DNA of 64,000 nucleotides from Phyllosticta citribraziliensis (Eukaryota). The position numbers and the translations under genes were made by a program. The stretch spans positions 1,922,001 to 1,986,000 of the forward strand of contig NW_027117343.1 of the NCBI RefSeq assembly GCF_038025025.1, given 5' to 3'. Shown piece by piece: positions 21,799 through 42,712 of this stretch (position 1 is its first letter; the number at the start of each line of letters is the position of its first letter). The notes under the pieces were generated by a model. The model saw only the letters and a program-made list of their open reading frames with translations. It was not told where the DNA came from and made no database searches.

Positions 21799-24066
21799 CT
21801 AGCAAAATATGCTCGAGCGAGTCCTCTCCGTCTCCATGTTTGCGTTGTGCAGGTGCTGCGTGACCTCCAACACTTGCATCACGTGGCTGTAGCTAAGATC
21901 GGTCTCCTTGCGGCTTGCCAGAAGCTGCGCCGTCTTGAGCACGTTCTTGATCTGTCTGCCATTCATGTTCATCAAGGACAGCGAGTGGAGCTGCCTGTCC
22001 GTGATGTCGTGGGGCCGACTCGACTGCGCCAGAAAGTTGTCCCAGACCTTGCGGCGCGACTCCATCGAAAGCTCGGGGTACTCGATCGAGATGTGGATGC
22101 GCGACTGGAATGCCGGGTCGAACGTCTTGACGCGATTGGTGGTCAAGAACATGATGCCTTCCTGCGGGTTGTATTAGCAAATGCATCTGCCCCCTGTTGC
22201 CAAGATGAGACTTACATAGTACTCCAAGAGGCGCAGGAAGATGGTGACGAGCTTGTTCCTCTCGAGTTCGTGCAGGGAGCGCTCTTCGAGGAAGATGTCG
22301 GCCTCGTCGATCAAGAGCACCGCGTCCCACCTGGTGCACATTTCAAGAATGCGCTGCAGCTTGGCCTCCGTTGACATGCGATCCATGCTCAAGTCGCCAG
22401 CGCTCATCATGAACAGAGGAGCCCGCATCTCCTCGGCCACGCTCTCTGCAGTCAGCGTCTTCCCCACGCCCGGGGGTCCGCACAGCAGCAGGATGATGCC
22501 ACGTCCCTTGCCCTCAATGACGTCGTCAAACGCATCAACATGCTTGCGCTGGGCTTCGGTGAAGCCAAGGATGAGCTCTTTTTGGTTGGAGGGAAGCACG
22601 AGCGACTCAAAGGCATCCACCTGCCATTCAATCTCCTTGACCGAGTTGACAAAAAACTTGAGCCACTGCTTGGTCTGCAAAGAGTAGCCGCGGACAATGG
22701 GACTGGCAATCAGCTTTTGCTCCTCGGTCAGCGAAGCACGCTTTGCGTCCCGGGACTCTTCTTCGGCGAAATCACCTCCATCCGGCATGCCATCATCCGT
22801 GCCTAGATCCTCCTCGGTAACGTGCTCAACACCAGTGGAGCGCATCGACAGCCATTTCACAAGGTCCGTTCCAGCCCGGGGCGCGAGGGAGCCTTCGGCA
22901 GTCGAGGACAAGGGCGTTGTGAAGACGGCTTCTTCTGGGACAAACCGGTTCCAGCCATGTGTGTCAATCATGACACGGCCCTTGATGCTGTACTTGTCCT
23001 TTTTCCTCTCGACGTGATTCTCCTTCCAGGCCATTCCCTGGTAGGCCTTGTAGTGGCAACCAGCAAGCGTCTCGAACTTGGCACCACGATCCAGCAGCTT
23101 GGAGCACAATCCCTCTGGATCATGATGGAAGCCGACCGGATAGCATGGAAGGTCGGTGATTGGGCGCGTTCCGCTGAAGACGGGGATTCTCATGTTCTTG
23201 GGAGACGAACCGAATCGATTGCCGTCCCATTCCACATTGCTGCAATACATGCGCAAGTACGGATTGCCGTTTTCGTCCTTGGCGTAGAGGCAGCTGCCCA
23301 TTTTCATGGCTGCATCTTGGCCATGGAGGCGGCAGTAGATGAGATCGCCCGGTTGAAAGAGAGTCCAAAGATGCTCGAACGTTGTGACGTTGTTCAGCCT
23401 CATGTCCGCGGTAGCCTCGATGATTTCTTTGAATTCGGACTCCAAGAGTTCCTTGAGCAACTGCGAATGCTCCCTGGTAGTGCGTTCATTTTCGTCTTCT
23501 GACTCGGGATCCAGCTCGTCGATGGCAGACATGAGCTCCGACCAACGGTGGATAAATGGCTTGAAGAGACCGTCAAACTCCGGACGCTTCAAGGTGAGAG
23601 TGACGCCCGGATAGCCGTGGAGAACCTTTTGAAGGAGCTTTTTGAGAAGTGGAGACTGGATGACGACGGAGTGAAGCTTGAGAACTCTGCGAGGGTCGTT
23701 GTAGACGCGAACTTTGCGGGCGACGATGGCCCACTTGGCCGTCTCTGCATTTTCGACGGGCTCTCCAATATCTTCGGGAAGCGTGTCCTGCCAGTCAAAT
23801 TTGCCCCGCTTATCTTCCTTGCCGCTGTAGAGGTTTTTGATGCCAGATTCCTTGCCGATGAGCGAGGATTCGAGGGTTTCTGTCTTGTTGTTGGCGCGAT
23901 CGCCGTTGGACGTGGACGGAAACGGCATCGAGTCCGGCATTGTCGTGGTGCTCAAGGTAGACAACTGACGCGCCAGGGCTATGCGCGCATCCAATTCCAC
24001 TGAAGCAGGGAGATTGCGGCCCTCTCCTCTGCCAAAATAGCTTGGTCGTTCAAGGTGGTCGTCCAT
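21799..24066 (-). CDS. Fungal AAA+ ATPase (DUF7025-associated type), 2 exons; start may be 23940
   Basis: Walker A GPPGVGKT, Walker B LLIDEAD, FLRLLEYY, FLTTNR and FDPAFQSRIH. Intron ~22214-22163. Confidence 0.9.
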
Positions 24067-25617
24067 TCCCCAGGGATGTTGTAAGCGTTGGGGTGGGCAA
24101 AGGATGGAGGTGGAAGGGAATGGGATTCAGTTAGCGGTCCAGTGAGCGGTGATGCATCCAAAAGACGCGCCGCTGCCTGTTTGCCTGCCTGCCTGCCTGC
24201 GCTGGCAGTCTACCGGCGCGCGTCCCACATGGGCAAGGCTGTGTGGACCCAAGGAGACGGTGGGGCGTTGTTGGACGGCGCTCAAGGGCGTGCCGCGCTC
24301 TACCCTTTGGTCTTAATGGTGTGAATTTCGCCCTGGTTCAGATGGAAGGAGAGAGGTGACGCCAGGGCGAGATGGGGGACATGGTGGCCACAAGGCTCGC
24401 GTAACGACATGGGTTGGACTGTTCCCTTGACCGGGTGACCGGGTGGGCGCAGGAGGGACGATAACGGCGCTCCCGGAAAGGCCAAGCCGCCCAAAGTTGG
24501 ATCAGTTGGAGTTGGACACAATAGGAGTTGATGTTGAGAGAGTCATGGATACACATCCAGGAACAGGAACAGGCCAGAGTCTGGCTGGGATGGGAGCTTC
24601 GGTTGGGATGCCGAGGGCACCGCCACAGTACTGCACAGTACAGTAGGTAGCTGAGCCACCAGCCCGAGGTGCGGGCCAACGGCTACGGTACGGCCTGGGC
24701 GCTGAGAATAAGGTGTGAGGCGCGAGTTTGTTTCTACCTCTATTTCTACAACAGACTCCGCCCGAATTTGCACGGAGAGGTCACCATCAGTCTGCGTGTC
24801 GCTCTCCGACCTGACGCCTCTCTCGCCACTCTCCCCGTGTCGGCCTTGCTGTCCGCCTCCGCCGCCTGAGCCTCCGGTCTGCTCGTCTCGTCTCGTCTCG
24901 TCGCGCCGTCACTGCGACATTCACCGGCACGGCCAACTGAACCCCTCTCGACTTCGGCCCGTCACAGGTCCACCTGAAGCTATACATACATGGCTTGCAT
25001 TGCTCTGGCCGTGTCTCAAGCCGCGAACGTGCCTGTGTGATGGTGGGGCGTCTGGGGCTCCATGTCAGCCAACTGCCTCGACGACACGACACGACACGAC
25101 ACGACACGGCGCCGGCTGTCCTTCTCCTTGGGCCATGTCGTGAAGACAATCCCTGACTCCCGACTCGCCGCGGATCGTGCAGCGCATGCAGCCTGCAGCA
25201 TGGCGTGCTAATGGACCGGTCCGCGGCTGTCGAGGTGCAAAGGGCGGCCATCACAATCACAGCCGCCCGTCACCGTCACCGTCTCCGTCTCCGTCACCCG
25301 AGACCTGGCCAGGCAAGGCGTTGACGCTCCCTACTGCATCACGGCCGTGGCTTATCGCATTGCGTGTCCCGTTTATTATTGTATTTCAAGACGGCCTGGT
25401 GCACTAGCAAAGGGGCGCCCGTGGGTTCCACAAATAATGCACTTTGACTCTGTCTGCGCTGGTCGGCCCGCCCAAGCTGCCATCCCCGGCTTAGCGAATG
25501 GAACATCCACCATCCCACAGGCTCTGCGCTGCGCATACCGCTTCCACCACCTCCCTCTCCGCCGACCGACGTGCAGATAACACGCCGCATAAAGCCCCCT
25601 CCTCTCCTCTCTCCGCC

Positions 25618-26389
25618 ATGTCTTCACTCACCTCCACCGCTGCCACTCGGCTCCAGGCTGATAAACCCTCGACCTCGTCTCACCCGCCCGCCAGCGCCCC
25701 CGACCCGACCTCGACCTCGACCTCCAATGCCTCCCAAAGAGGATTCGCCGCCTCCGCTGCCGCCGGCCCCTCCGAACTCGCCAGTCTTAAAGTAAACCTC
25801 AAGGCCGCCCTGCGCCAGTTTCCCGACTTCCCCGAGCCCGGCATCCTCTTCGAAGACATTCTCCCCATCTTTGCCAACGCCGACCTCCACAAGCAATTCC
25901 TGCGCGCCCTCGAGCTGCACGTCTCGACCAACTACGCCCAAAAACCCGACGTCATCATCGGCCTCGAGGCCCGAGGCTTCCTCTTTGGCCCCAGCCTGGC
26001 CCTCGCCCTGGGCGCGTCCTTTGTCCCCGTCAGGAAAAAGGGCAAGCTCCCGGGCCCCACCCAGACGGCCAGCTACAAGAAGGAATATGGCGAGGACTTT
26101 TTCCAGATGCAGGCCGACGCCATCAAGCCGGGACAAAAGGCCCTGATTGTCGACGACATCATCGCCACTGGTGAGTAATGATAATGCGGCTCGACGTGAC
26201 GCAGGCAGGGGTGGCTAACGGCGTGCAACAGGCGGTTCTGCAGCAGCTGCAGGCCAGCTCGTCAAGCAGCTGGGTGGCTCGCTGCTCGGCTACATTTTCA
26301 TCCTCGAGCTCGAGTTCCTCAAGGGCCGCGACAAGCTCGACGCACCCGTGTACACGCTGCTATCGGGCCAGGAGGAGAGCTCGGCGTAA
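25618..26389 (+). CDS. apt1: Adenine phosphoribosyltransferase, 2 exons
   Basis: [29 protein letters not shown] and [10 protein letters not shown]. Intron 26171-26231; TAA at 26387-26389. Confidence 0.96.
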
Positions 26390-26955
26390 ATGAGCCAGTC
26401 TGACTACCAACCGGCAGGACGGCGCCCAACGGTCGCTGCATGGAATCCGGACCGCGTCATCACAGTGCGTCGAAGCGAGCAGTGGAGTTCGGACCGTGGG
26501 AATCTCTGCGTAGACGGTGTGAAAATCTCGATTGCGGTGCAGGGCTGAAGGGGGTGCTCGATTGGGTGGGAAACTTTGCCGGACCTTGACATTTCACATG
26601 GATGATGCTGCTTATCTGCATGGCATGGCATGGCATGGATGGAGCGATGGACCTTTTGACCTTTTTTTTTTTTTTTTTTTTTTTTTTCCTCTCCACTGGA
26701 CGAGAGGCCTGGATCTTTCTACCATAGATTTCGGAGACTTGTGTTGCTTGCCACTGCATACAGCATCATGGGCGTAAATATACATACAGACCAGGAGAAA
26801 CACGTTGGCTTGTCAAAGGGTCCATGGCTGGTCGTGGTGCTACCCCGCCGTGGCAGCCCCACCATTGGCCCTCTGCAAAGAATTGGCCGGCTCAGGTCGT
26901 GACTGGACCGACACCTGGACTGCATTCCACCGCTACCACCAACCTGCACTGTACC

Positions 26956-27791
26956 ATGCTCGCCCGCGCTCCCGTCCGCCAGCTTACCACGTCGCTCACT
27001 CGCATCGCCCGTCCGCGATTGATCCTCACTCCCCTCCGCCAATTTACCACCACCAGAAACATGTCTGACATGCAGAAGGTCTTCACCAACAAAGCCACCG
27101 CCCGTAAGCACCCCTCGGCTTTGTCAACCGCGTCTAGCTCCCGTTGACTAACAATCTACCTCTAGCCGTCGGCCCCTATGTACGTTTGGCCTACATTTCC
27201 CACCCCAGCAGCGGCCATCGTCGCCGCACTAATCCACTGCCCAATCTCCTCCTACATCACCCCACCCGGTGAGGCCGTCGAGCTCCGGAGCTCGGTGTCG
27301 CCAGAGTCATCAACATCAGTCAACCATGCCGACGCGCCATGCCGCTCAATTGGGCATTCCTCGATGCGATTGGAGCTGACACACAACAGTCGCAGGCCGT
27401 CGTTGCTGGCGGGCAGGTGTACGTCTCGGGCCAGATGCCCGCCGACGCGCAGGGCAACCTGGTCGAGGGCACCATTGCGCAGAAGACGGAGGCCGCGTGC
27501 AAGAACATTGTTGCCATTCTGGAGGAGGCCGGCAGCGACATTTCGCGCGTCGTCAAGGTGCGCAACCCGCTCTCACATCTTTCCTTCGATTGTTGGCAGA
27601 TAAGTGGCTGACTCTCGATTGTGACCCAGGTCAACATCTTCCTCGACGACATGGCCCACTTTGGCGAGATGAACAGCGTCTACGAGAAGTTCTTTGCCCA
27701 CAAGCCCGCGCGCAGCTGCATCGCCGCCAAGGCGCTGCCCAAGGGCATCCCCCTTGAGATTGAGTGCATTGCCCTTGCGGGCAAGGCTTAA
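26956..27791 (+). CDS. RidA/YjgF/UK114 family enamine-imine deaminase (Mmf1/Hmf1-like), 4 exons
   Basis: Exons 26956-27103, 27166-27179, 27390-27557 and 27630-27791 give PVGPYSQAV, VSGQMP, VVKVNIFL, MNSVY, KPARSC and LEIECIA. Confidence 0.93.
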
Positions 27792-28385
27792 GGTTGTAAA
27801 CGCCAATCGGAGTCTTCTAGCAGCCACGTAGTCTTGCAGTCATCAATGACACTTGAAATGAATCATGTTCGAGCAATTGGTCCCATTGCAAACACCCATA
27901 ATTGAATCAAAGTGCCAATGCAGCGAAGTGAGCGTCTTGTTGTCTCGTCATCTCTCGCCGGGTAACTTTTTTCGGAAAGGGTCCCCGCGCTTCGGCGCCG
28001 ACCCACGCCAAGCCCATTTTCCGCTGACCGCCCGACCGCTGCTTGCGCGTGTTTAGACCACCACAGCTTTTGGAGCTTCGTCCAGCATCCCAACTCACAC
28101 GCTCCCTCCCCACCTGCGTCATTGACACAGCAAATCCACCGCGAAGCGCGTTTCGAGCACGTATCGACCTCGTCCGCCCACTACACGGCCGACTCTACTG
28201 CTGCGCTCACGACACCGACTTCCGTTCTTCGCACCGCAAACCCGCGAGCAAACAGCAGCCTCCTGCACAACCCACGACGACGACGACGACGACGACAACC
28301 GCTGCCGCCGCCGCCGCCGCCGCATAGCAAACGCTTACGCCTCTGCGCCACCCCTCTCATCTCCTCAACACACCGCCTGCCTAGC

Positions 28386-29048
28386 ATGGCCGCCGCCGAC
28401 GACACACAAATGGAGCTGGACCCAGCACCAGCATCGCCGTCGTCACCCTCGCGCAACAACGCCAAACACACAACACAACAACAAGGCGTGGTGGTGGAGG
28501 CGCGCACCAAGGACGGCAGCGCGGTCGCGGTGCGGTCGATCGAGGGCTGGATCATCATCGCGACCAATGTGCACGAGGAGGCCACCGAGGAGGACGTCAC
28601 GGACCTGTTTGGCGAGTTTGGCGAGATCAAGAACTTGCATTTGAATCTGGATCGTAGGACGGGCTATGTTAAGGTGGGTTCGGCCGCTTCCTCCCCACTT
28701 CCTGCTCCCTCCTCCTCCACCACCTACACCTCCCCCTCCATCATCTCATTTTGACTGGCTGTTTGCTCTTCACTCCCCACTGACCTCACTCCCCAGGGCT
28801 ACGTGCTAATCGAATACCCGACCGTCTCCGAAGCCCGCGCCGCCATCGAGGGCGCCGACGGCAAGAAGCTGCTCGACCAGACCATCGCCGTCGACTACGC
28901 GTTCGTGCGGCCGCCACCCAAGCAGGGCGGCGCCAGGGGCGGCCCGCGACGAGGCGGTGGCGGTGCAGGTGGAAGGGGCCGCAGTCGCAGTCCGGAGGAT
29001 AGGGCTAGGAGTCGTAGTCCCGAGGGTAGGGGTAGTGATGTGGAGTAG
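28386..29048 (+). CDS. RBM8A: Exon junction complex subunit Y14 / RNA-binding protein 8A, 2 exons
   Basis: [32 protein letters not shown], and an RG/RS tail. Intron 28674-28796. Confidence 0.96.
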
Positions 29049-29271
29049 TGTCGCGATGAATGGGGATGGGGGAGTGGGAGGGGGATGGAGGGGTTGGACT
29101 GCTGCGCTGAAATGGGCTTGGACGGATGAAGACAGGCATCCTACGATGCTGACTGTCTACAGCCAGTTTGTCAGGCAAGGCAGGGCAGGCGAGGCGAGAC
29201 AATGAACGAGATGACGGAGCCAGGCGCAAAAGACACAGACCGACCAAGGAGGCGCTTTCTGGATAGCTGAG

Positions 29272-29311
29272 GTACCTACGTACCTACCTACCTACCTACC
29301 TACCTACCTAT
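29272..29311. repeat. (TACC)n microsatellite
   Basis: Run of TACC units downstream of RBM8A. Confidence 0.9.
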
Positions 29312-29559
29312 ATGCGTAGGTACATGCATACACATACGTCACTGAATCACCGAACCAACACATCAACCTCCATGTCCTGCACTCCTGTCCATCCTATCAA
29401 CAGCCGACCAGCCAGCCGGCCAGAACACGGTGCCTCAATCGCTCGATGGCGATGCTGATGCTGTCGTTTGTGCAATGATGCTGACGATGAGGTTCATGGT
29501 GCCATGATACCATGGTGCTGAGTCTCCTGCCCAGTTCTTCGCGGCTTGTGTGTGGCGAG

Positions 29560-32500
29560 GAGAGACGGACGGAGGAAAAAGTGACAAAGGCGGTCAACCA
29601 TGCAGGCGGACGGACGGACAGACAGTAGATATTGACTGACTGTGTGGCACGAATGTCGACGCTGCCATCGCTGTGATGCTGGGTTTTCTGTGGGGGAGAG
29701 AAGGGGGGTTTTTATACCCGCGTCTGCAGCGGCTGAGCTAGGGGGTCAGGAGCTCAGATGTCAGAAGCAGATATCAGGAGGTCAGATTTCAGCGGTCGGA
29801 CAGCCATCAGTCCCGCTGTCTGCCTGCGCGTGTCCCGGTCAGTGCATATAAAACCTCACTCGTCCTCCACCGACAACCTTCCATCAACAACACTGGCGGC
29901 TTGCGTGCCATCCAGCTGCGACCCGGTGGTAAACTAAGCTTCGACTGTGTCGCTCCGTCGGCTTCGCGCCTGCGGGCACCGTCACTGTTCTTGTTCTTGT
30001 TGTTGTTTCTTTCTTTCTTTTCATTTCCTGCGGAGTCAGTCAGTCAGTCTGACATTCCCCGAAGAACTTCATCACGCCACGCTGCTCCTCCTCAGCAGCG
30101 TCGCGGGACGGTGGTGCTGTGTGTCGATACTTAATGGTGCAGCTCGTTGTCGTTGCTTTGCTGAGATTTGAGTTGGCCTCAGGGGGCGGAAATGGCGGAG
30201 CAAAACAAAACAAAACTGCCTCCAAAAGTACTTCATGCAGGCGTGGTTCTGCCAACACGGGCAGATAGACAGTCAAACACTCTGACTGGGTAAGCTGTCG
30301 AACTGTCGCTGGGTGCGTTGGTTGTTGAGCGGTGAAGTAGGGGGGGAGAGGGAGGGGTTTTTATACCCCAAGTCCCAGCCACAGGTTCCGATAGACCGGG
30401 CAGCGCAGCATGTGACAGATGCGATGCGGCGAGTGCTGTGTCGGCACCTGACTGCGGTGACTGTTTGACAGGTATAAAGATCGCCACCCTCCCCTGACGG
30501 TCTTGCAATGCCAGCGCTGGAGTCGACATACATGACGACCACCCCAGAGGACTGTACTTTGTGACGAGGAAGAGAACGCCACTGTGTCTGTTGTCTTTCC
30601 GTTCCTGCTCCGCCGCCGCTCGCCATGGACTCTAGAACTCTTTCTTCTAAGTCTCAGGCTCTCTGTGGCGTTTGCACGTCGTCCATCACGTCCGCTCGTT
30701 GCTGATTGCCGCCGTTTTGCTCCGATGACGCTGTGTAGCATCTTAATCTACTGCTTCTGCCTTACTCGCAAAAAGCGCGCTCAGACTCAAAGAGGAGTCT
30801 GCTCAAGCCAGACACACCACCTCCCCAGTCCGTCTTCTGGTTGAACTTTCTTCCGCCAGCTCCCAGTGTGCTTCTGCCCACCGTCGTTTTGAGAAGTAGA
30901 GTCGGCCACGATGTCGATGCGTTCCCGTCGAGTGGGAAGAGAGAGGCTTTTATAGCAGGAAGTCGAGTTTGGAGCGCGGACGGGCCAGCCCGCTTCTAGG
31001 ATGGAGGTGTGCAATTGGCTGCAGTGTTGAGCTTGTGCTGTCAGCACTTTGACTGCGGTGCGGGTATATAAGACCACCTCCTCTCCCTCTCAAAGTGCCA
31101 GGATAGCGGCGGTCGTCTTCCAGTGGCAAGGCGAGTTCTAAGACATACTGAAACTGCTTTTTTGCTCCTCTGGAGGCTCAACCTTCTCGCGACACTCTCT
31201 GTTTTGTTGTTCTTCTGTTCCGCTTCTTTGAGATAATGTTTTGGATTTAGGGGTTCTTCATCATCTTTGCACCTCACGCTCGTCATTGTTGTGCAGTGAT
31301 GTTGCTGTGCATCCACACCACAAACTACTCTTCTGCGCGCGACTCTTTGCCTCCACTTCCCAAACACCAGAAGTACATAGGGTTTGGTCTCTTGAGCGCA
31401 CCAAACAAGTCGGGTCCCAGTGTTTCAGGTGTCCACCACAGTTACAACCCGGTGGGCCGTACAGTGCTGCGCGTCGAAGCTGGAGCCGATGAGTCTTCGA
31501 AGCGAGGAATCGACGCCCCTTTTATACAGTCTACCTCTTGTGGGCTTCACATGTAGCAAGCCTAGTATACTATCCATGTGACAGCGGTGTCACAAGTGAC
31601 GGTGGCGACGCATGTGCCGCCGCCTCTTCGACCGCGGGTATAAAAGAAGCTGTTCTGCTCTCTTTGAGGAGCAGTGTCCATGAAGTCGAAGTCCTGGCGT
31701 GGGGATGGCAAGGTGACGACGGTGGGGAGTTTGACTCTTTTCGTTCGTCGTTCGTCGCTCCGCGGCCTGTGGGTTTTGATGTCACTTCAACGCCAAAGAT
31801 TCATACTTGTCTTGTGATGATTTTGAGCATCGCCATAGCATAATGCTCCGTCGTATCTTTGGTCTCAGATATCGTTCATCGCTGTATTGCTGAAGTTAGA
31901 AGAGTGTCGGGGAAGTGAGGACGCCTCGGCGAACCCGCCCAGTGAGAGAAGTCCCGAATTTTGCGCAGAGCCGGCGCAGCGACACAGTTGATGATTCCAG
32001 GATCTTCATAGTTGAACTGGAGGTGCATCGGTGATGAGCTGATAAGGAGGTGCTCCAGTGGTCTATTTACACTCGTTGTCCAGCTGGATTCAGGATCAAG
32101 TCTGCGGCGCGTGCGAGGGCAGTCAGATGCCAGCGATGCGTCAGTCACAAGGATCTCGGACTAAACTTAGGCAGCAGGGCCAGCGCTTAGCGGTCTGGCA
32201 TGTGCTAAACGTGATTCTGCGGTCTTTGTAGGTATAAAAAGGGATGTCTTCATTCTTCCCTCTTCTCCTCCACAGCGCAGCGGTCTTCTCTCCTCCATGC
32301 GACTTGGAGTGAAGTAGAGATCACAATGCCGTTCCCTCACTGTTTTTCTGTTTGTCTTTCTTTGCTTTGTCTCTTCTAATTTGTGTTGGGAGCTTTGAGG
32401 GTTTCCATTGATCAAACGGCGCGGAAGATGTTGCGCGTCATTGTCAAGTCCTCGTAAGGTCTTTCGCCGCTTTTGGGGGCTGTTGATGCGATGAACGCAG

Positions 32501-35500
32501 ATTCCGATGTCCGGAAACTCTCGATCCCTCCCGAAAAAAAAGAAAGTCGAGGAAACGCAAGAAACACGGCCGACAAAGTCAACGAAATCTGTCATCTTTG
32601 TTCAGTTTAACCTGTGTTCCCATCAGGATTGTGTCGATAGAGCTCAAACTCTGGGCAGAGCCGGTCGCGTTTTATAGAACAGCGAACATGGGGGCGAAGT
32701 AGGTGAGAGTCAGGGGTTCAGGGGTCAGGCGACAATTTCGTCACCTGTCTTTCACAAGCCGCTGGGCTGTTCGAGTAGCTGAAGGCATGTGTTAAACCTA
32801 GCTTTCATGTGCTTGTTGGGTATATAAACACTCAATCTGTCCGCTTGCTTGTTTGCTTCTTCAACACTGTCGTCGCTAAGCTGGATGAGCAATGAGCACG
32901 CAAAGATGATACTGCGACCATATTATCCCCTTATGGCCACTCTTTCTTCTCTTTGTCCCTTCTTGGAATTCCCGCCCGCTGGTTAGCGCAGACCTCCTTC
33001 GGATCAGATCAGGGCTCTATCTCGCCGCTCGGCACGATCAAGAGATTACGACTTCCACCACTCCTAATGAATATTGCTGCTTTCCATCCCTCGAGTATAA
33101 TGAGACTCTGGAGCTTTCCGCTTAATCCAAAGGCTGAAAATTCCAGGGCACGGCCACCGCGAACACAGTGTTCATTTTGCCGAAGTCCTCCAACCAAATG
33201 CAACTCTTCACTGTCAACTTCCTGCGTAGACATGGTTGCGCAATTGGCAGTTTGCAGTGGAGATACACTTACTTTTATAGACGAAACACCGACGAGCGAC
33301 TTCTGGAAGCGCGTCACGAGTTCACGTTCCGAACTGCCCCAGTGCGCGGTCAGGGGTTCAGGATTTAGGAGTCAGCTGACGGAATCAACCGCGCCGCGCC
33401 AGATGATTCCCTTTTTTTTTTTTTTTTAAGTATAAAAGCACATTGTCCTCCCTGCCACTGTATAGAGCCTTGGAAACGCCAGGCAGAGGATTTACGTATA
33501 CTGGTCCGGCTTTGCGTTGCTTTTCGGCCAACGAGTCAGTCTCTTCATGTTCGGTACTTGTGTTTTGCTCTTGGTGTCCATCTGCTCAACTGTTCATGGC
33601 TTTCAGTCTTGTTGTCAATTCTTGTTGGTGGTGGTCGTCATCGACAACTCCAACTGCTCAACATCGCCCCCACAAAATGTCGCTGCAGATTCCATATTTT
33701 GCGGGGGAAGGCCAAATAGGCAAAACATTGATAAGCCTCCAAGACGCAAGACCAAGTAGCAGCTAGAGGTGGATTGAACAATTATACATCCGAAAAGTGA
33801 CGCATGGGCTGGGGTTTCCGCAACGCGACACAGGCCAGGAGCTGCGGCGGATGTTGGACAGATCAGGAATAACTGACAAGGCTTTATATCCAGGACGGCT
33901 GGAGCCACATGCAAAATGTAGCCCCGTCACAAGCGCTGAACTGATCAAGGGCGATTTGTGGCGGAGTCAGGGGTCAGGGGGAACATGTCATGCGGCAAGC
34001 AAACCCCATCGGCGACTCCGCGGCTACATTTCAGCAGTCTTCGTCAGCTCTGCTCAACAATACATTTTCTCTCTTGCTTCTTTGCGGGGAGACAGGACAA
34101 GCGAAAATTTTGTCCAGTTACTTTTGTCGTTTCTCGGGGCGGCGAAGGCATCGCAATCGCCTTGCTTTTTCTCAGCGGTCATTTCCATCACTTCAAACTC
34201 ATCATGAGTACATCGACTCATATGTCTTCATCTTGGCGCCATGCCGAAGTTCTGCGCTGTCTCCGAGTCGTGCACAGCCAGTGTTGAGAATTTCGCCTCC
34301 TACCCCTAAAAAGCGCAAGCAAGCCAAAGAGAAGGAAAGGTGCGTATCGATGTAACCGGAATTTACTCCCACAGTTTCCCACATGCTGTTGAGTATTCCT
34401 TCGCTGAGGGAGGCGGGTGAGTAGAGGAGGTTGAAGTGATGCAGCAAAGCCAGCGAAGCGGAGTTTTTATACCTGCGCGAAACGCTCAGGGCAAGGCGAA
34501 TCACATGCGGCGATTGATCATGATAGCGATGCCGCTGAATGGCCGTCAGGCGGCGGGAGCCGTGCTTACGCCTCTTTCTGCGAGTATAAAATGCCCCAAT
34601 CGCTCGATTTCCACTCAGTCTTCAACCAGGCATTCCGGTCTCACAAAGTCGCAACAACATAGCGTCACGGCTTGTCGCTCTGTGCCCTTTTATTTGGTCA
34701 CCTGAAACTTCAAGAACACAAGACTTTTGTTTCTCATTCCCCTACCTCCTACCCTTATGCAGCTCACACTCTTCTCGATCCCGCCATCCGCTTCTTACTC
34801 ATTCACCATTAACACTTAACGTTTGTCGACGACATTCCATCCTGGCGCTGCCATTCACCGGGAGCATTCAAACACCAACCCCAGAGAATCCCTGGAAACA
34901 TGCAAAATCAACTCCGCAGGAAACAAAAAGAACAAAGTCAGATCGTTGTAGGCGGTTTGCCGCAAAGACACAGGCGGCGCCAGTGGGTCGTCGAAGTTTG
35001 TGCTCCGCAACTTGCTCGTTGAAGTGACTTGGTGTTCAGAATGCGGCGGAAGTAGAGCGCTTTTATAGCTGCCGGCAGAGCATCCTCGCGCATGCAGTCA
35101 CAGGCAGCAGGCTGCAGCCTGTGGTGACGCATCACGAGCATTCGATCGAGGTCAGGCGCGAGGAAATGCGGCGCTCGTGCCCTCCGCCGCGAGTATTTCA
35201 GCATTGCTTTTCACCTCTCGAATCAATCCATTCCAAGCCGCGTTCCGGACTTCGAGGGATACACCACTCAACGACCGTAACACTGGCTTGCGGCTCCAGA
35301 ACACACATGTAGCAGACTTGGCTTTTCTTTTGTCTTTTCTGTTCAGTTTTCCACTCCCCATGTCTATCCAAGCTCCTGTTCCGTTTCTATTGTTGATGAG
35401 GTGCGTCAACATCGCCACATCTCGTCGAAAATCATTCTGAGCGAATCATGCCGAGATTCTGTCGACGTGGACGTTTTGACATCTACCCGCTCACCCACCG

Positions 35501-36450
35501 CGCAAAAGGCAAGTCATTAGCCATGGTGGCGGATGCTCCCACACAACCCGTCCTTCTTTCGGCATGCATCTGCAGAGCTCTGGGAGCGATGCGGATTGAC
35601 CTGGTTCATCGGCTGCAAACAGCAGGTCTCTTATACCACCCCAGCAGCGGCGATAGCATGTGCCAGCCACGAGTAACATGCTGCCAGCAGTTGCTGCACG
35701 TCAGGGGCACATGTCCTTCGCCTCCTCTCAGCATGTGGCTTTCGAATCCACGGCAGTATAAAAGCCGCATCCTCCTCTTGCTTGGATGACTACAACAAAC
35801 CGCGCAAAGGGCGCTGAGGAAGGTACTCTACGAAGATAGACACTTTGGCAAGCGGCTGCGAATGAGAACTACACTTTTCTGTCCTGTCATGTCCGCGGCA
35901 CGCACCTCATCCTTCCGCAACCCAGCCACCAGCGCAAAACCAGCGACTCGCCATTGCTCTCCCATGCCGTCAAGCACCACTCTTCCATCTTCTTTGTTGA
36001 ACGCGGTCACCACGCGCAACCCCACCCTACCATGTCTGCCATCCGCCATCCACCAAGCGCAAAAACAAGTGGATATTCAGCGATCAAACCTGCGCGGCAA
36101 ACAGTGCACTCTCCTCAGTCCTGACCTCTCCAGCTCCGGATCCAGCACAGTCAAAGCTTGATCCGCGCGAGTTCTTCAAGCGCCGGGAGAAAAGCTTGTG
36201 GAAAGAAGATGGACAACGGGGTCTTAAGGGCGTCTTAAATACTACTGTTCATCGGTGCGGTGAGCCGCGCGGCACATGCTTATCACAAACAAGACTAGAT
36301 TACCCATGCGCAATTGGCACGGGGACGCGAATCCAGACATTGGTGATTTGCATGTGGGACCGCTGGCTGGCTGCGTATATAAGCTCCCTGCTCTCCTCCT
36401 CGCTACGAAGGCAGACAGCAGAACGCAACAGAGCCGACGCAAAAGATGGC
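29560..36450. promoter_or_regulatory. Phased array of 12 divergent TATA-box pairs with ~595-bp period, probably non-coding
   Basis: Minus-strand TATA boxes start at 29716, 30365, 30954, 31526, (32071), 32676, 33279, 33888, 34471, 35067, 35635 and 36241. Plus-strand boxes start at 29847, 30473, 31065, 31639, 32233, 32821, 33431, (34025), 34585, (35194), 35757 and 36376. Brackets mark degenerate sites. No credible protein gene in the interval. Confidence 0.8.
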
Positions 36451-36782
36451 AACGAGAAAAAGGGAACTTTGGCGTGGGCGGAAAATGACGCGATCGATTA
36501 CTTCCCGGTTTGCTTGGGAGGTGAAGACCTTTACTGCGGTGCTCGTGTCGTGTGGCAGTCCTCAGGTAGAGAAATTCAGCGGATGCTGCTTAGCAGCATC
36601 GTCATCAAAACAATCTGAGCACCACCATTTTGGACTGGCAGTGCACCACATCATCGTCGCTGATAGCGTGGAGTAAGGGGGCGGGCTTGACGTACACGAG
36701 GTGCCTGCTCTGGAACAGGGAATTGAGGGGAAAGAAAAGACAAGACAATGGTCCGAGTTTGTTTGAATCCACACAGACAGCT

Positions 36783-36826
36783 TCCGTCCAACGCCATGCT
36801 GTTATCCGTCCAACGCCATGCTGTTA
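36783..36826. repeat. Perfect 22-bp tandem duplication
   Basis: TCCGTCCAACGCCATGCTGTTA at 36783-36804 and 36805-36826. Confidence 0.95.
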
Positions 36827-37213
36827 TTCTTTCCCTGGTTTCAGGGCTGGAGGAATGCCACGAGAGGCTCCACCATCGAAGACAGAAGCGGAGGCGCCTC
36901 GTATGCAACCCAAACTCAACAGGCTTTGTCCGGCCCCGAAAATGGAGTAAGTGACGTCCAGTCTGTTCGGATAAGCCTCTCCCGTCTCTCAGCCAAGTTT
37001 TGAACGTCCAGCTAGGACCGATACATTTGCCGTTGTCTGACAGAACACGATTCGTCCATTCTCGGTGCCCTCACGAATCCATTCGAAGCCCACCTCAAGA
37101 TCTTAAATCCGTCCAAAACATAAACCGGTTCCCCTTTGATCAATTTATGACCCAAAAAGCGAAAGGAAACAGACTGTATGCATAAAGAGAGCCAAATCAA
37201 TTGTTTCGAAGCA

Positions 37214-40200
37214 TCAGGCATCCGTGACGACCCGACTGCTCCCCTGAGATGCCGACGCCTCTTCGTGCTCTGTGGGTTTGTCTTCCAGCATTCGCTGTTG
37301 TGTCGGTGCAGTCGGCCAGAGGTTGAAAGGGTTCCAGGCGCTAAGCATCTTCGCCAGAGGGCTCTGTTGCGGAGTCGTGGGTGCCGGGGAGTCAGTGGTG
37401 GCCCGTGGGGTTGGTCTAGATTCTTCGCCCGGGTCTGAGAGGGTTCTGGAACTCAGGCTGGCTCGCTCTCTTCTTTTTTGTTCCAGCACGGGGAGAATTT
37501 TGGTCGTTTGAGATGGGAGCGTACTCCGAACTACTTCGTCGATCGTCTTCGGGTCTCCTGGCAGGTGAAAAGAGAAGCCAGGATCTTGTCGCTGTAAGAC
37601 AAGATACGGATCTGCGCCAGCAATGAGCAGCATAGTAGTAATGTCTCCAATGACGACGCTGTCTATCCAAACGTACGGACTGGCTGAGTGGCATCGGAGC
37701 TAGCAGTATTGATCAGGATCACCGATTTGGGGGATGAAAGGCTAGGAGTCTGACGAGAAAAACTTACTTCGTTGAGGAACATCTCCCACAATGTCAACGC
37801 CATACCAGGCACAGTTTCGTTGACGTCTGCTTGATGTCTCAGAACCTCAACTACTAACATGCGGTAGTCTATTCTTGTCTCAGGGCCAAAGCAATGTAGC
37901 AAAGTACACATTAAGACGCTGAAACTGGCCTTACTCTGGACGTGGCGACCTTGGAGCTTTTCCAAGACGTACCAATCCAAAGCGAATAGGGAGGCCACGT
38001 CAAGGATATCAGCTGCTTTGAAAAGGCGACAGGGAATCGATACTAAGTTACTCCAGTGTTGATCCTGTTGAACTCGCTGAGTCAGTACTCAACTGGTCTG
38101 GTCTGTTTTACACAAGGGTTTGCATCTCACCTGGGCTGAAATATGCGACGACATGGAACTTGAGAATAGATGGTCAACCTCGTCGATTAGCCGCGTCAAT
38201 GGCCGAGCCCATTGTTCCTCATAGCTCCGAGCAGGACGAAGTACTGAGTCCAATGATCCATCAAGATACTTCATCGTGTTCTTATCCTCGCTCCTCAACA
38301 GCCTTGGGAGGTCCAAGCACTTTAATACCATCAAAGAACCTTTGGCATTGACCAAGTTGGCATCAAATATGCCGCCGAGCTCTTTTTCGAGATACTCAGG
38401 CATTACTTCGTCCAAAAGGTAATCTCTGACTGTGCGGTGCAAGAATTCCACCCGATATACTGATACTTCAGCGCCTTCGATGAGGTCTTTCTCAGTAACG
38501 TGGAGAAAATCTTTGCATCGTGCGTTGATGCGCTTTTCCAGGCTGTTCTTCCAATCATCTATCTCAGATCTTGAGACTTGATGGAAGGTATTTCTGAAGA
38601 CGTACTCTGGATCATCCTCTTTGTCCAATACTTGAAAAGTCGCAAGTGTAGGGGGAGTTTCCGACTTTAAGCATATTTTCAGCATCCGCGCCGTATCCCT
38701 GCGATGTTCGCGCCTGATGGATTTGTAAATGCGATCAAAGAGTGCTTCCAGCTCAGTCGGGTAACTGTTGACCTTCGTCCACAGATCTTTGAAATTCGCC
38801 CCTTCAGCTGGCGCGCTCAGGAGCATTCGGACTACGAGGAACACCCATAGAAATACCCCTGAAGAGTTCTGTACAATATGATCTGTCATTTCATCGAACA
38901 TGGTACCCATTAAGGCCATGAGATCCGGGCTTTCGGCGATTGTGTCCCTGGTAAACTTTCGAATGTCGTCTTCGGTTAGCTCGTGGACTCGGCATTTGGT
39001 GCTGGTGTGAAAAGCGTGCTCGAATTTTTCCCACGGCCGGCTTGACACGCAAAGCTTGACTGAGGGCACATCCTCAAATCTCTTGAGAAGCCCGGTGATT
39101 TCATCCTGAGTACAGTCGTACTCGTCGAGCCCGTCGATGAAAAGACATATTTTCGGTCTTTCAGTTTCATCCACGATTTTACACAATGCGGCTTCCAGCA
39201 TTTTGGGTGAAATATTTCCTAGTTCCCGCTCGTCGCGATCCAGCCAAAGTCGTGGGAAAATTTTGGGAATCAGGACTGGGTGTTGCCGTAAGATCTGAAA
39301 GACAGTGGAGCGGAGAAATCCTTCACGAGAGCGCTGCATGCTGGACCCAGATGTCCAAAAGTAGTGGCTCGCGACGGCGATCTTCTGGTCTCCAGCCCAC
39401 GATTCCAAAAGTCGAATGGTCTCGTTATGGTCCATGATGAATTTCATCAGTGTGGACTTGCCGCTCCCGGGCTTTCCACTTATCCAGTAAATGCCGCTAT
39501 GATGCTCAAGCCAGTCAGGGAATCCACGCTTTTCATTGTCGAATATCCATTGGAAAGTGCATTTGTGAGCTACGCTGACGTTGTTGTATCGATCCATGTG
39601 TTCCAAATACTGTAAGCGTTTCAGGATTTGCAACGCCTTGTCCGCCTCCTGCTCTTCCTTCGTAAACTTGATAAACAAGTCTGCGATCCTACTATAGTCA
39701 ATGGATTTTGCGTTGATACTTTCGATAATTCGGTCTCCTGTTGACGACAGCTGCTTGGAAGTGTCTGCTTGCAGGGTTCTGTCCATTTGCGCGACTTCAT
39801 CGAGCTTCGTCATCAAATACGAATTGTCGCCCCTGTTTTGTATTAGTTGTGTCTCCAATAGGGCGATCGAGGAGCCACGTACTTGACCATTGATATCAGT
39901 CTCGAGTCGAGTGCTTTTTGCAACCTCTGGAGTCTTTCATGAATCTCGAGTATCGCTCTCTTTCTTCGTCTTGCGCGGAAGGTCGACCTGACAACTTGCC
40001 TTCTTCGATGTGTCGTATCTTCGGGGAGAACTAGAGCTCGTAGCTCCGTTTCCAGGCTCTCCGCAACTTCGTCGTAAAGGTTGGAGATTTGCAATACGTC
40101 TTCCTCTTCCTCGGTGTGACTTGTTTTCGACGACAGCCTCGTTTTGAGCAACGTTTGCTGTTTGCGCATATCGTGGACAATCTGGCCGATGTCAGATATG

Positions 40201-40396
40201 CCGTCTCCGATAGGTCTTCCTTCGTGGGCTGAAGTGGAAACGTGGCTCTGGTACTGACCTTTAGCGTCTCACTGTTCTCTTTCACCATTCCATCCGCAGA
40301 TCGGTACTGCTCTTTAAGCTGCTTGGACACTCGTAGAGCAAAATCCACGACCTGGATGATGTTGGCCGTAAGGCTGAGGACATCGATCGGGATCAT
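37214..40396 (-). CDS. NACHT-domain STAND NTPase (fungal NLR-like) with N-terminal SesA/HeLo-like helical domain, about 5 exons
   Basis: N-terminus LSLTANIIQVVDF; AHKCTFQWIF; Walker A YWISGKPGSGKSTLMK; Walker B CLFIDGLDE; CVSSRPW; GVFLWVFLV; FLHRTVRDYL. Introns ~40258-40182, ~39882-39834, ~38130-38065 and ~37768-37700 splice in frame to a C-terminus with LLIAGADP. Confidence 0.88.
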
Positions 40397-41075
40397 GTTG
40401 AAATGACATTCGGGACCGGGATCAAGACAAGCAAAGGCAAATTTAGGGCGTCTTGGCTGGAGGTTGAAGGTCGGTGTCAGTTGATGAGGAGAGAGACAGA
40501 ATCGTTTAATGGGACAGCGAGTGTGTGTTGAGGCACGAAAGCAGAAGGTGTAGACTCTCGAGGCAACAGCACACTGCCTCCTCCCTCGTCAGCCCCCAAC
40601 CACAACCCCACCCCCGGTTGGCAGGACCCAGTGGCTGGCTGCATGCACCTCAGCCTCATCACCGCAACTGGATGGCTTAGATATGCAGCCAGATAAGTAA
40701 CGCCACGAATCAGCGAAATCAGCCTCGTTCATCTTTGAGGCTGAATGGGGAGTCGTGATGATGATTTTGGAGATGAAGACTTGCATTTCGTAGCCGTGAG
40801 CTTCGTGATCGACCCGCAAGCAAGTCTCGCAGTCGCCTTCCATGGCAAACTGCGTTGCGCCACCTGAAGAACGCAGGCAAAAGCGTCAAGTCAAGCCAGT
40901 ACCAATTTTCATCGGCCGTCCCCTCGAATCGAGAAGAAGAAAAAGACCGGAACCATCAAGTCAGAAGGATACGTGCAGACCAAACGACGTAAATATTCAA
41001 GGGGGTATCCCAAACAAAACGCCAGAGCAAAGGCGCGCAGCGCAGAACCAGCACATCATCGACGAAGGAATAATA

Positions 41076-42712
41076 TCAATCATCGTAGCCCATATCCTCC
41101 TCTTCTTCGTCCAACTCTTCGCTCTGCTCGTCCTCGTCGGAGCTGTCTCGCCCGGCTCCGCCAGCCATGTAGCGACTAGCCCGCGTCCACTCCTCGCTTT
41201 CTCCTAGCCCAACGCGCCTGCTGTCTTCCATGAAGCTGCTACGTGATTCGCCGTCCACCGACTCGAGCGTCTCGATTGTCGCGCTGATGTCGATGTCGCG
41301 CTCGTCTTCTACTGGCGCTGGGTCCATCTGCAGCAGGCTCGCCTTCTCGTCGGCGTCGAGGTCAGCGTCAGCCGCAAATCCGACGCTCTTGCCGCCGCTG
41401 CCAGATGACGAGGTAGGTCGGCCGTGGTCAACGAGCACGTCGCCATCCCACGGCCGACACGACTTGACAAGTTCGCCGCAGCGCAGACACGTCCAGCCCT
41501 CGCCCTCCTCGGCCTCAATCTTTTGCGCCAGACACACAAAGCAGTATACGCAGCCACACGGAATGGCCTGGTACGGGTTGGTAACATCGGTAGCCGTGGA
41601 CCCCACGACGCCGCCGGTCCCCGCCGACTGCGCCATCATTTGAGACTCGGAGGCGGTGCCACCGGTGGGGTTTTGGTCGTTGTAGCAGATGGCACAGGTG
41701 CGCTCAGGGAGGAAGCCGAGCTCACCCGCTTTGCCTGCGTCGGAGTCGTCATCGGCGCCGGCAGAGGAGCGCGAGAAGAAGGTCTTGAGTTTGCGCCAGG
41801 AGCGGGCGAGGATGCGGCGCCATCGCGAGATACCGACCAGAGGAAGGAGAAAGAGGAGAAATTCGGTAAAGGCGTGCCAGACGAGCTGGCGGTTGAGGTA
41901 TTCAAACGAGACTTCACGGGAGATGGAGGATGAGGCGGGGGTCAGGCGCAGGCCGAGCAGACGGTCGACCAGAGTTCGGTATCGGCCGTTGGTCAGGAAG
42001 ACGAGGAACGAGATGAAGGCGGCAAAGGAGTGCGTCGTGCTGAGATAGTCCGTCAAGCGTTCGGCTAGGCGGACGCGTGCAGATGGCAGCTCGTAGTCGG
42101 ACGTCCGCGCCGAAAGCCATTCCTCCCACTTTGTCCACGCATATCTCCCACCCACGGTCAACAGGCCATATGCACTCTTTTGCCATCTCCTCGGGGGCGG
42201 GCGTGCGGGATCGTCGGAACGCGTGTCAGTGTAGCGGAGACCTTGCAGCGCGGCGCCGTACGAGGCGTTGTGGTCCCAGATGCTGAGCTTGAACAAGATG
42301 GCGCGTAGAGCGAGTAGAATCTCGGGCGAGTAATCGCTGGCAAGGTGATTCTGAAGACCAGTCAGTTATCAAAAGATCCCAAGACTTCCGAATCTGCGGA
42401 GGTACGTACACCAAAGTACTTGAGCCCCTCGCCGACCTGGCCCTTGAGCAGCTCCAAGAGCTCTTCATCCAAAAGCTCCGCATCGACCTGGCCGACGCGA
42501 AACGCCGGCCGCGTGCCTTCTCTCCCTCTGATACCCTCCCATATAGACAGGCCCGCAGTGCCGACTCGATTCAGAGGATAAGGGAGCCGCGAGAGGTTGG
42601 CGGTGTTGAGAGCTTCGCGTTGGGCTTCGATTCGGGCGCGGTATTCGGCTTCGCGCTGCTGTCGCCGAGCATGCAGGCGGGCTTGCGCGGCAGCAAAGTC
42701 GGCGGAGGACAT
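41076..42712 (-). CDS. pex2: Peroxisomal biogenesis RING-finger peroxin Pex2, 2 exons
   Basis: RVGQVDAELLDEEL, ASYGAALQGLRY, VSFEYLNRQLVWHAFTEFL and RING CAIC..CGCVYCFVC..WTCLRC. Intron ~42409-42353. Confidence 0.95.

Follow-up and report, generated by a model that had tools for sequence, protein, structure and literature searches.

In a 64,000-nucleotide window of the Phyllosticta citribraziliensis genome (contig NW_027117343.1, positions 1,922,001 to 1,986,000; coordinates below count from the first letter of this window), the DNA between an RBM8A/Y14-like gene and a NACHT-NTPase gene was found to hold an array of 12 back-to-back TATA promoter modules (29710 to 36382), which recur on a 590-bp lattice and leave 11 bodies of 432-518 bp between them. 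The modules share a promoter grammar, the region is non-coding, and it is weakly transcribed, with one polyadenylated RNA detected on the minus strand. The reading we favour, to which we give about an even chance of being right, is that the array consists of 24 co-regulated short RNA polymerase II (Pol II) non-coding units, arranged in convergent overlapping pairs and derived from an old tandem amplification. All 24 promoters would then be active; the lengths of their transcripts, the overlap between them and any double-stranded or small-RNA product are likewise predicted.

A 590-bp lattice of paired TATA boxes

An earlier note, made from the sequence alone, had listed 12 minus-strand and 12 plus-strand TATA sites, and all of them were recovered where it had placed them. 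TATA[AT]A is present at 19 of the 24 sites and TATAAGA at one (minus strand, 35635). The remaining four are degenerate, namely TGTAAAT at 32071 and TATTTAA at 36241 on the minus strand and TACATTT at 34025 and TATTTCA at 35194 on the plus strand, the same four that had been flagged. Successive minus-strand boxes are 545-649 bp apart, as claimed, and successive plus-strand boxes 560-626 bp. The two boxes of a pair are separated by 108-162 bp (mean 129.8, standard deviation (SD) 17), marginally above the 107-161 bp given previously, and the bodies between pairs have a mean length of 464 bp (SD 25). On the plus strand, 8 of the 13 TATAAA words in the 64-kb window fall within the region, as do 9 of the 10 on the minus strand; the resulting total of 17 TATAAA and TTTATA words compares with an average of 2.3 per shuffle and with no more than 9 in any of 1000 shuffles. 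A comparison of the periodicity with random background, one of the checks proposed in the earlier note, was run as a Rayleigh periodogram. The period was 590 on both strands, with R values of 0.990 for the 10 strict plus sites and 0.980 for the 9 strict minus sites, and the value of either strand was matched by none of 20000 random sets. Residual SDs from a straight lattice were 15 and 21 bp over 11 periods. The lattice is far beyond chance.

When the 24 sites were aligned in their own orientation, a shared context, gcggGTATAAAAGc, was seen, followed by a C/T-rich stretch. The pyrimidine-rich tract previously noted after the boxes is real, the pyrimidine fraction at +20 to +40 being 0.64 on the plus strand and 0.60 on the minus strand. 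By sequence, the sites belong to the TATA-containing Pol II core promoters (TATA[AT]A in 19/24, pyrimidine fraction 0.60-0.64 downstream). An element additional to those listed before is a GCATGTG box, found on the TATA's own strand within 75 nt upstream of 9 of the 24 TATAs and, for eight of the 24 (five plus, three minus), at -24 to -38. Two further TATAs have CATGTG at -27 and GCATG at -28, respectively. Opposite-strand GCATGTG occurred in two cases in the same 75-nt pieces, and its frequency in random 75-mers outside the array was 0.003. The composite motif GCATGTG-N15-35-TATAWA has seven matches in the 64-kb window, all inside the array, where 0.01 would be expected. Many spacers also hold TCAGGGG words: this heptamer occurs seven times in the array (six of them in spacers) and is absent from the other 57 kb of that strand. 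Given the own-strand GCATGTG, the composite motif and the enrichment of TCAGGGG, the plus and minus halves are, as judged from sequence, the same kind of promoter in mirror image, and the proposal of some 24 related promoters in alternating orientation is upheld by the common gcggGTATAAAAGc context, the downstream C/T-rich tract and the own-strand GCATGTG ~30 nt upstream. Because they have this grammar of GCATGTG, TATA, C/T-rich and TCAGGGG elements in common, the 24 promoters probably answer to the same regulators. CATGTG is a bHLH-type core and AGGGG a stress-element core.

The composition downstream of the boxes is mirror-like on the two strands: a pyrimidine-rich stretch at +20 to +40 is followed by T-rich sequence at ~+100 to +180 and by A-rich sequence at ~+300 to +340. 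The plus-strand T-tract of unit 1 and the minus-strand T-tract of unit 10 share a 22-nt match (91% complementary) at like offsets.

The spacing of the array is tighter than its sequence (lattice SD 15-21 bp; spacers 130 +/- 17 bp; bodies 464 +/- 25 bp) and the conserved elements all lie in the spacers, both of which would suit an array acting at the level of DNA or chromatin. Under this explanation, which is possible but rather unlikely, 12 nucleosome-free modules with sites for TATA-binding protein (TBP) and other factors would each be followed by about three nucleosomes; the array might serve as an enhancer, insulator, boundary or factor sink for the neighbouring genes, and its transcripts would be by-products. 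However, the canonical TATA box and C/T-rich start region that face outward from every module are requirements of a core promoter rather than of an enhancer or boundary, and the three-nucleosome arithmetic is purely inferential.

Relationship between units and absence of coding or structural signals

Tandem Repeats Finder (TRF) detected no tandem array with a period near 590. In a MAFFT alignment of the 12 units the mean column identity was 39%, with only the TATAs near-invariant, so that the copies fall short of the ~70% or more at which members of a tandem repeat or satellite would be alignable. A blastn search of the array against the rest of the window returned poly-T matches only. Some in-register similarity was nevertheless seen between bodies (5-6, z 6.0; 3-4, z 4.3) and between spacers, both in neighbours (6-7, z 5.7; 2-3, z 5.5) and in one next-but-one pair (6-8, z 7.1). 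The mean z over all unit pairs was ~0.9-1.0, only a few neighbouring pairs exceeded 4, and reverse-complement controls gave similar counts of pairs with z>3. Two statements of the earlier note therefore stand with a qualification. That the segments are not recognisable repeats and share no open reading frame (ORF) agrees with TRF, the 39% identity and the lack of a common ORF, and that the architecture is conserved and the sequence is not agrees with a lattice kept around bodies at background identity, but in both cases a weak in-register similarity between some neighbours has to be added. Because of this faint homology, the units would appear to descend from a head-to-head pair that was amplified in tandem long ago. 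The survival of 6-7-nt boxes, orientation and lattice while the bodies have reached background identity is an argument that the promoters and their spacing have been under selection.

The same faint homology between neighbours is also what a neutral relic would show. The array would in that case have no function today and be either a row of pseudogenes or the decaying remains of tandem copies of a small gene pair that once worked. The lack of ORFs, the low expression and the five non-canonical boxes (four degenerate, one TATAAGA) are in keeping with such a relic, as is the finding that 26 loci of distant fungi have no comparable array downstream of RBM8A. Neutral decay, however, should lose 6-7-nt motifs and spacing along with everything else, yet 19 of the 24 TATAs, the alternation, the lattice and the oriented GCATGTG survive between bodies at background identity (39% by MAFFT; mean pair z 0.9). 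Repeat-induced point mutation (RIP), which spares words made of A and T only, was rejected as the cause of their retention. RIP is indicated by a TpA/ApT index above ~0.89, a (CpA+TpG)/(ApC+GpT) index below ~1.03 and a low GC content; the array has values of 0.59, 1.30 and 0.53, respectively, all like those of its flanks, and the conserved GCATGTG holds C and G. A neutral relic is therefore considered distinctly unlikely. Spacers of the kind left by miniature inverted-repeat transposable elements, bounded by inverted CTTTTATAC and GTATAAAAG, were also rejected, as the spacers form no repeat family and insertion does not give a lattice.

For the distant comparison, a metagenome scan with the RBM8A exon yielded 80 fungal loci. 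The best identity was 65% across most of the exon, rising to 88% at most in the conserved second half. None of these 80 distant loci had at least two divergent TATA pairs downstream of RBM8A. In the 26 with at least 5 kb downstream of the gene, 0-1 pairs were counted in each, versus 7 here; two distant loci with 2-3 pairs overall were AT-richer contigs (GC 0.43-0.48). Among distant fungi, this shows that the array is not a general feature downstream of RBM8A.

The array region is non-coding. No ORF is common to the units, and the first ATG ORFs after the 24 TATAs encode 1-85 aa with no shared motif. Of the stop-to-stop ORFs, 57 that are 70 aa or longer were compared with Pfam and none reached the cut-off, and none of 10 ATG ORFs (98-142 aa, including the longest of the array) was found in a collection of 15 billion proteins. 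No homologue was obtained for a 177-aa ORF, and a 144-aa ORF gave a single marginal match (E 9e-4, 27% identity). Three-base periodicity was 1.03 in the array versus 2.9-5.5 in three neighbouring exons, and no splice joint was seen inside the array in either of the two RNA runs described below. A decayed tandem protein-gene or transposon array, which the earlier note had named as an outcome that would overturn its proposal, was looked for and finds no support in a shared ORF, a domain or codon periodicity.

Stop-to-stop ORFs of at least 110 aa number 20 in the array versus 9.6 +/- 2.8 in dinucleotide shuffles, and stop trinucleotides number 414 against 481 expected from such shuffles, a mild depletion affecting all six frames. 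These two figures are what would speak for a family of tandem genes encoding very small and rapidly evolving proteins or peptides, such as secreted peptides, with frames that escape detection. With the short and dissimilar first ATG ORFs, no codon periodicity, no Pfam, exact or remote matches and no splice joints within the array in either run, such a family appears highly improbable. Pheromone or peptide genes in particular were rejected, as neither a recurring short ORF nor a C-terminal motif was present.

Structured RNAs were equally lacking. At the gathering threshold, Rfam identified only U2 (46244-46437) in the whole window and nothing in the array; at an E-value threshold, only four matches (E 2.9-9.8) were returned for 29000-37000. 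No known structured non-coding RNA family (small nucleolar RNA, small nuclear RNA (snRNA) or others) was thus recognised by Rfam, and a tRNA search found none. The segments from +30 to +150 after the TATAs had a mean folding z of -0.21, with none of the 24 below -2, and those from +30 to +330 a mean of 0.06, with one of the 24 below -2; stable stem-loop precursors, as expected of hairpin small RNAs or microRNA-like RNAs (milRNAs), were not seen. GATGA-like words noticed by eye on the minus strand of some bodies led small nucleolar RNA units to be considered and rejected, there being no Rfam support and no structure signal.

Transcription of the array and its possible function

The RNA data comprise two small runs, X1 and X2, from one organism and two studies, which were used as assembled unstranded contigs placed on 23000-42000. 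Both represent RNA, since the introns of the neighbouring genes are spliced in both, at GT..AG or CT..AC. In X1 the depth was 21-124 over 29.3-34.4 kb and 609 at 34412-35045, versus ~2500 in the flanks; in X2 it was 0-13.7, with covered and empty bins, versus ~140-530 in the flanks. Array cover therefore amounts to roughly 1-25% of the neighbours' depth in the two runs; the X2 bins without cover (29974-32509 and 33778-34411) were not taken as silence. The bin at 34412-35045 is the deepest of those not merged with the NACHT contig (X1 609, X2 13.7). Two X1 contigs lie largely or wholly inside the array: one of 1485 nt (32284..33747, unstranded) spans bodies 5-7 and two promoter modules and has its left end 51 nt after the plus TATA at 32233, and one of 1034 nt (29319..30290, unstranded) spans module 1 and most of body 1.

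In X2, a loose TTTTTTTT with eight non-templated T stands before 34709, where the genome is not T-rich, and is therefore the poly(A) tail of a minus-strand RNA. This RNA (34709..35040, 3' end observed, 5' end inferred) lies downstream of the minus TATA at 35067. It ends ~358 nt after that box and 15 nt beyond an A-rich tract, which is the T-rich tract of the plus strand read backwards. With this end and the weak cover in both runs, the array is transcribed, as had been predicted; strand polarity is minus only, for one body, the cover elsewhere being unstranded. The transcript passes a T5 run located 138 nt after its TATA and ends 220 nt beyond that run. Because it is polyadenylated and continues past the T5 run, it fits a Pol II rather than a Pol III product.

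A further alternative is a set of TATA-led Pol III genes, whose RNAs of ~60-130 nt would stop at the first T run and could be milRNA-type precursors or another class of small RNA. TATA-like elements can drive Pol III at Neurospora milR-1, according to the part of the published account used here (PMC3547838). A first T4 run lies 85-185 nt after 17 of the 24 TATAs (a window picked after the data were seen), the corresponding share of randomly placed points being 18% outside the array and 30% within it. Eight of the 12 first runs of the minus strand fall at 128-180, and the runs often stand in a G/C context, for example GCTTTTTG. Most of them are merely T4, however, and they can equally be read as the A-rich poly(A) tract of an opposite-strand RNA. 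Moreover, the sole RNA end observed is polyadenylated and 220 nt past a T5 run, no A or B boxes were apparent by eye, and neither a tRNA nor an Rfam match at the gathering score was found (the four matches had E 2.9-9.8). The +30 to +150 segments carry no excess structure, whereas milRNA precursors are stem-loops in the same part of that account (PMC3547838). The analogy with TATA-led Pol III milRNA genes drawn in the earlier note finds little support here, and a Pol III battery is regarded as very unlikely.

According to the reading favoured here, two short Pol II units lying head to head would have been amplified in tandem long ago, to give the present 12 pairs and 24 promoters. Each promoter would combine GCATGTG at ~24-38 nt upstream with a TATA box of the GGTATAAAAG type and a start region rich in C and T. 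Each promoter would read into a ~464-bp non-coding body unrelated to the other bodies, with the promoter at the far end reading back; the facing promoters around each body, by position and orientation, are indeed as the convergent geometry proposed earlier requires. Each body would yield two convergent polyadenylated RNAs of a few hundred nucleotides (~330 nt for the one described above), overlapping mid-body. The T-rich tract ~100-180 nt after each TATA would be the A-rich poly(A) tract of the opposing RNA, from which an overlap of ~200-250 nt between paired RNAs may be derived. Selection would have kept promoters, spacing and orientation, not transcript sequence, and since these are what was kept, the function is most likely the regulated convergent transcription itself. 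Possible outputs would be sense-antisense RNA, small RNA or a transcription-dependent chromatin state, and transcripts from the two outermost promoters would enter the 3' ends of the adjoining genes in antisense. The low RNA levels and the transcripts' lack of coding or structural signal would also suit the chromatin-level array considered above, but the existence of a discrete polyadenylated RNA speaks against it.

A number of observations weigh against this reading of 24 active units. The RNA cover is low, and the assembled contigs behind it are unstranded and cannot give start sites, strand or level; the single RNA end backs just one of the 24 promoters. Both X1 contigs described above cross whole promoter modules, which indicates some read-through, and read-through or pervasive transcription could explain much of the array cover. 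Among the promoters themselves, 5 of 24 boxes are non-canonical (the four degenerate ones and TATAAGA), and 14 of 24 TATAs lack (G)CATG(TG) at -24 to -38. The T-run window was chosen with the data in hand, and the homology signal is faint against its reverse-complement controls. The array may also be lineage-specific and evolutionarily young.

A more specific proposal, which we consider unlikely, is that the array is a dedicated generator of double-stranded RNA (dsRNA), with twelve unique-sequence cassettes, each between two facing promoters, under common GCATGTG and TCAGGGG control. A shared signal would fire all cassettes convergently and feed an RNA interference, small-RNA or transcription-coupled chromatin pathway. 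Its targets might be endogenous, or the adjacent NLR-like NACHT gene, or the host plant, through small-RNA effectors. If true, this would be a eukaryotic array of the 'conserved promoter, variable insert' type for which no counterpart has been described.

Module features, genomic setting and comparison with known systems

The minus and plus TATAs of module 1 (29710..29853) are located at 29716 and 29847, 131 bp apart, on either side of a spacer with a run of GTCAG-type words, in which TRF reports a 15-nt period (29745-29792). Module 2 (30359..30479) has its boxes at 30365 and 30473, with GCATGTG at 30408, 65 nt upstream of the plus TATA, and module 3 (30948..31071) has a minus TATA at 30954 and a plus TATATAA at 31065. 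In module 4 (31520..31645) the minus TATA at 31526 is preceded by CATGTG at -27 and the plus TATA at 31639 by GCATGTG at -29. Module 5 (32065..32239) combines the degenerate minus TGTAAAT at 32071 with a plus TATA at 32233 (GCATGTG at -35). Module 6 (32670..32827) comprises a minus TATA at 32676 and the plus TATATAAA at 32821 (GCATGTG at -36), with TCAGGGG at 32710 and 32718. In module 7 (33273..33437), with boxes at 33279 and 33431 and TCAGGGG at 33350, the plus TATA is abutted by a T16 run (33412-33427), the sole long homopolymer of the array. Module 8 (33882..34031) pairs the minus TATAAAG at 33888 (GCATGTG at -24) with the degenerate plus TACATTT at 34025 and holds TCAGGGG at 33967 and 33974. 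Module 9 (34465..34591) has a minus TATA at 34471 (GCATGTG at -37) and a plus TATA at 34585, and module 10 (35061..35200) a minus TATA at 35067 (GCATG at -28) and the degenerate plus TATTTCA at 35194. Module 11 (35629..35763) consists of the minus TATAAGA at 35635 and a plus TATA at 35757 (GCATGTG at -26), with TCAGGGG at 35701. In module 12 (36235..36382), the degenerate minus TATTTAA at 36241 (GCATGTG at -38) is joined by a plus TATATAA at 36376 (GCATGTG at -26), which is directed towards the 3' end of the NACHT gene. A further word, CGCAAAA, is similar to Ndt80-type middle-sporulation elements in their core. Counting both strands, the window has 16 copies, 8 of which lie in the array or at its edges (29225-36444), irregularly with respect to the TATAs.

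The gap filled by the array measures ~7.3 kb from stop codon to RNA 3' end and separates two convergent genes. To the left, the RBM8A/Y14-like RRM gene (28386..29045, plus strand, end approximate; intron ~28672-28794, confirmed by RNA joints) converges on the first minus promoter. To the right, the NACHT-NTPase gene (36343..40512, minus strand) has four CT..AC introns and a last coding exon ending near 37214. The earlier note had placed the array between RBM8A and PEX2; the left neighbour is as stated, but the right neighbour is the NACHT gene, with PEX2 beyond it. The PEX2 exon (41076-42365, minus strand) has 97% identity to a Phyllosticta citrichinensis protein, the next matches being from other Botryosphaeriales at ~70%. 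In run X2 the NACHT RNA contigs stop at 36343, having passed the palindromic TATATA in the last plus promoter by 33 nt; in run X1 the contig continues through units 12-10 as far as 35128. The gene has an apparent 3' untranslated region of ~870 nt (36343-37214, minus strand), which covers the twelfth body of the lattice and contains an exact 22-nt tandem duplication (TCCGTCCAACGCCATGCTGTTA, two copies) at 36783-36827.

Between RBM8A and the first module, a (TACC)n microsatellite (29273-29310) and a (GGAC)n-like run (29596-29620) were noted. An X1 contig joins foreign sequence at 29607, an 18-letter piece of the foreign part being absent from the window; most likely the join was made at the (GGAC)n run. 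In the gene left of RBM8A, an RNA joint present in both runs skips 286 nt (27103-27390) and has 14 other letters between its sides, which suggests a micro-exon or an alternative junction. Elsewhere in the window, the U2 snRNA gene (46244-46492, minus strand; Rfam RF00004, 90.4 bits) has an apparent mRNA-type intron of 57 nt (46469-46413, GTACGA...GCTAAC...CAG), which separates ...GCCTTTTGGCTTAG from ATCATGTGTAGTA...; near 46543 there is a TATAAAAA box. Among fungi, U2 genes with introns are known from a few yeasts.

Several known systems share individual properties with the array. In yeast, the divergent, short and unstable non-coding RNAs known as cryptic unstable transcripts (CUTs), stable unannotated transcripts (SUTs) and Xrn1-sensitive unstable transcripts (XUTs) arise at nucleosome-free bidirectional promoters as by-products of scattered gene promoters. 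Opposite-strand initiation sites ~110-160 bp apart would be common to both, whereas in the array canonical TATA boxes stand on both sides, no gene is served on either side, and the lattice carries the module 12 times. The 21U-RNA piRNA clusters of C. elegans contain many mini-units, each with a conserved upstream motif and a unique transcribed sequence, and in this they resemble the array, where each unit has its own copy of the upstream motif and an unrelated body; 21U units, however, are far smaller, form no regular alternating lattice and belong to an animal. The promoter and enhancer sub-repeats of ribosomal DNA intergenic spacers likewise represent promoter copies amplified in tandem in an intergenic region, but these are Pol I elements that can be aligned with each other and have one orientation, unlike the Pol II-type TATAs, alternating orientation and non-alignable bodies found here.

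Closer to the present case, disiRNA loci of Neurospora crassa lie in gene-rich regions, extend from a few hundred bp to >10 kb, show convergent transcription, with which induced DNA methylation is associated, have transcripts that originate at promoters, are defined by small RNAs symmetric on both strands and mostly overlap ordinary genes, according to the part of the published account drawn upon (PMC3764098). The array shares with them, on the same partial account, gene-rich DNA, the size range, a convergent promoter geometry and an origin that is not repeat- or RIP-derived (PMC3764098). It differs in its regular lattice of dedicated TATA promoter pairs, none being described for disiRNA loci in that part of the source (PMC3764098). 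In addition, the array is known from promoter geometry and unstranded RNA cover, and its host is a Dothideomycete, not Neurospora-like. As for the Pol III milRNA genes of Neurospora, the corresponding part of their description gives TATA-like elements and stem-loop precursors at scattered single loci (PMC3547838). TATA-like elements upstream of short non-coding units, with poly-T tracts downstream, are common to both (PMC3547838, in the same part), whereas the array, set against that description, has no structure signal, a poly(A) RNA that runs through a T5 run, and an ordered arrangement of 24 members. In the titles and abstracts of literature on Phyllosticta non-coding RNA and on fungal convergent transcription and small RNA, no such array was described. 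The array combines known kinds of element, namely bidirectional promoters, convergent non-coding pairs and tandem gene arrays; what is unusual is its regularity and preservation.

Fungal intergenic DNA is usually compact, yet here ~7 kb is filled by 24 like promoters on a lattice held to ~20 bp, in a plant-associated Dothideomycete and beside an NLR-like gene. Were the array a lineage-specific relic, it would show promoter elements outlasting the genes they once served. The promoter grammar (GCATGTG, ~30 nt, GGTATAAAAG) could serve as a query for further members of the regulon in the rest of the genome. Preservation of the array suggests that the sites and direction of transcription initiation are under selection and the content transcribed is not, and if the units fire as convergent pairs, they would constitute a natural, compact system for polymerase collision, antisense RNA, or the triggering of small RNA or chromatin changes.

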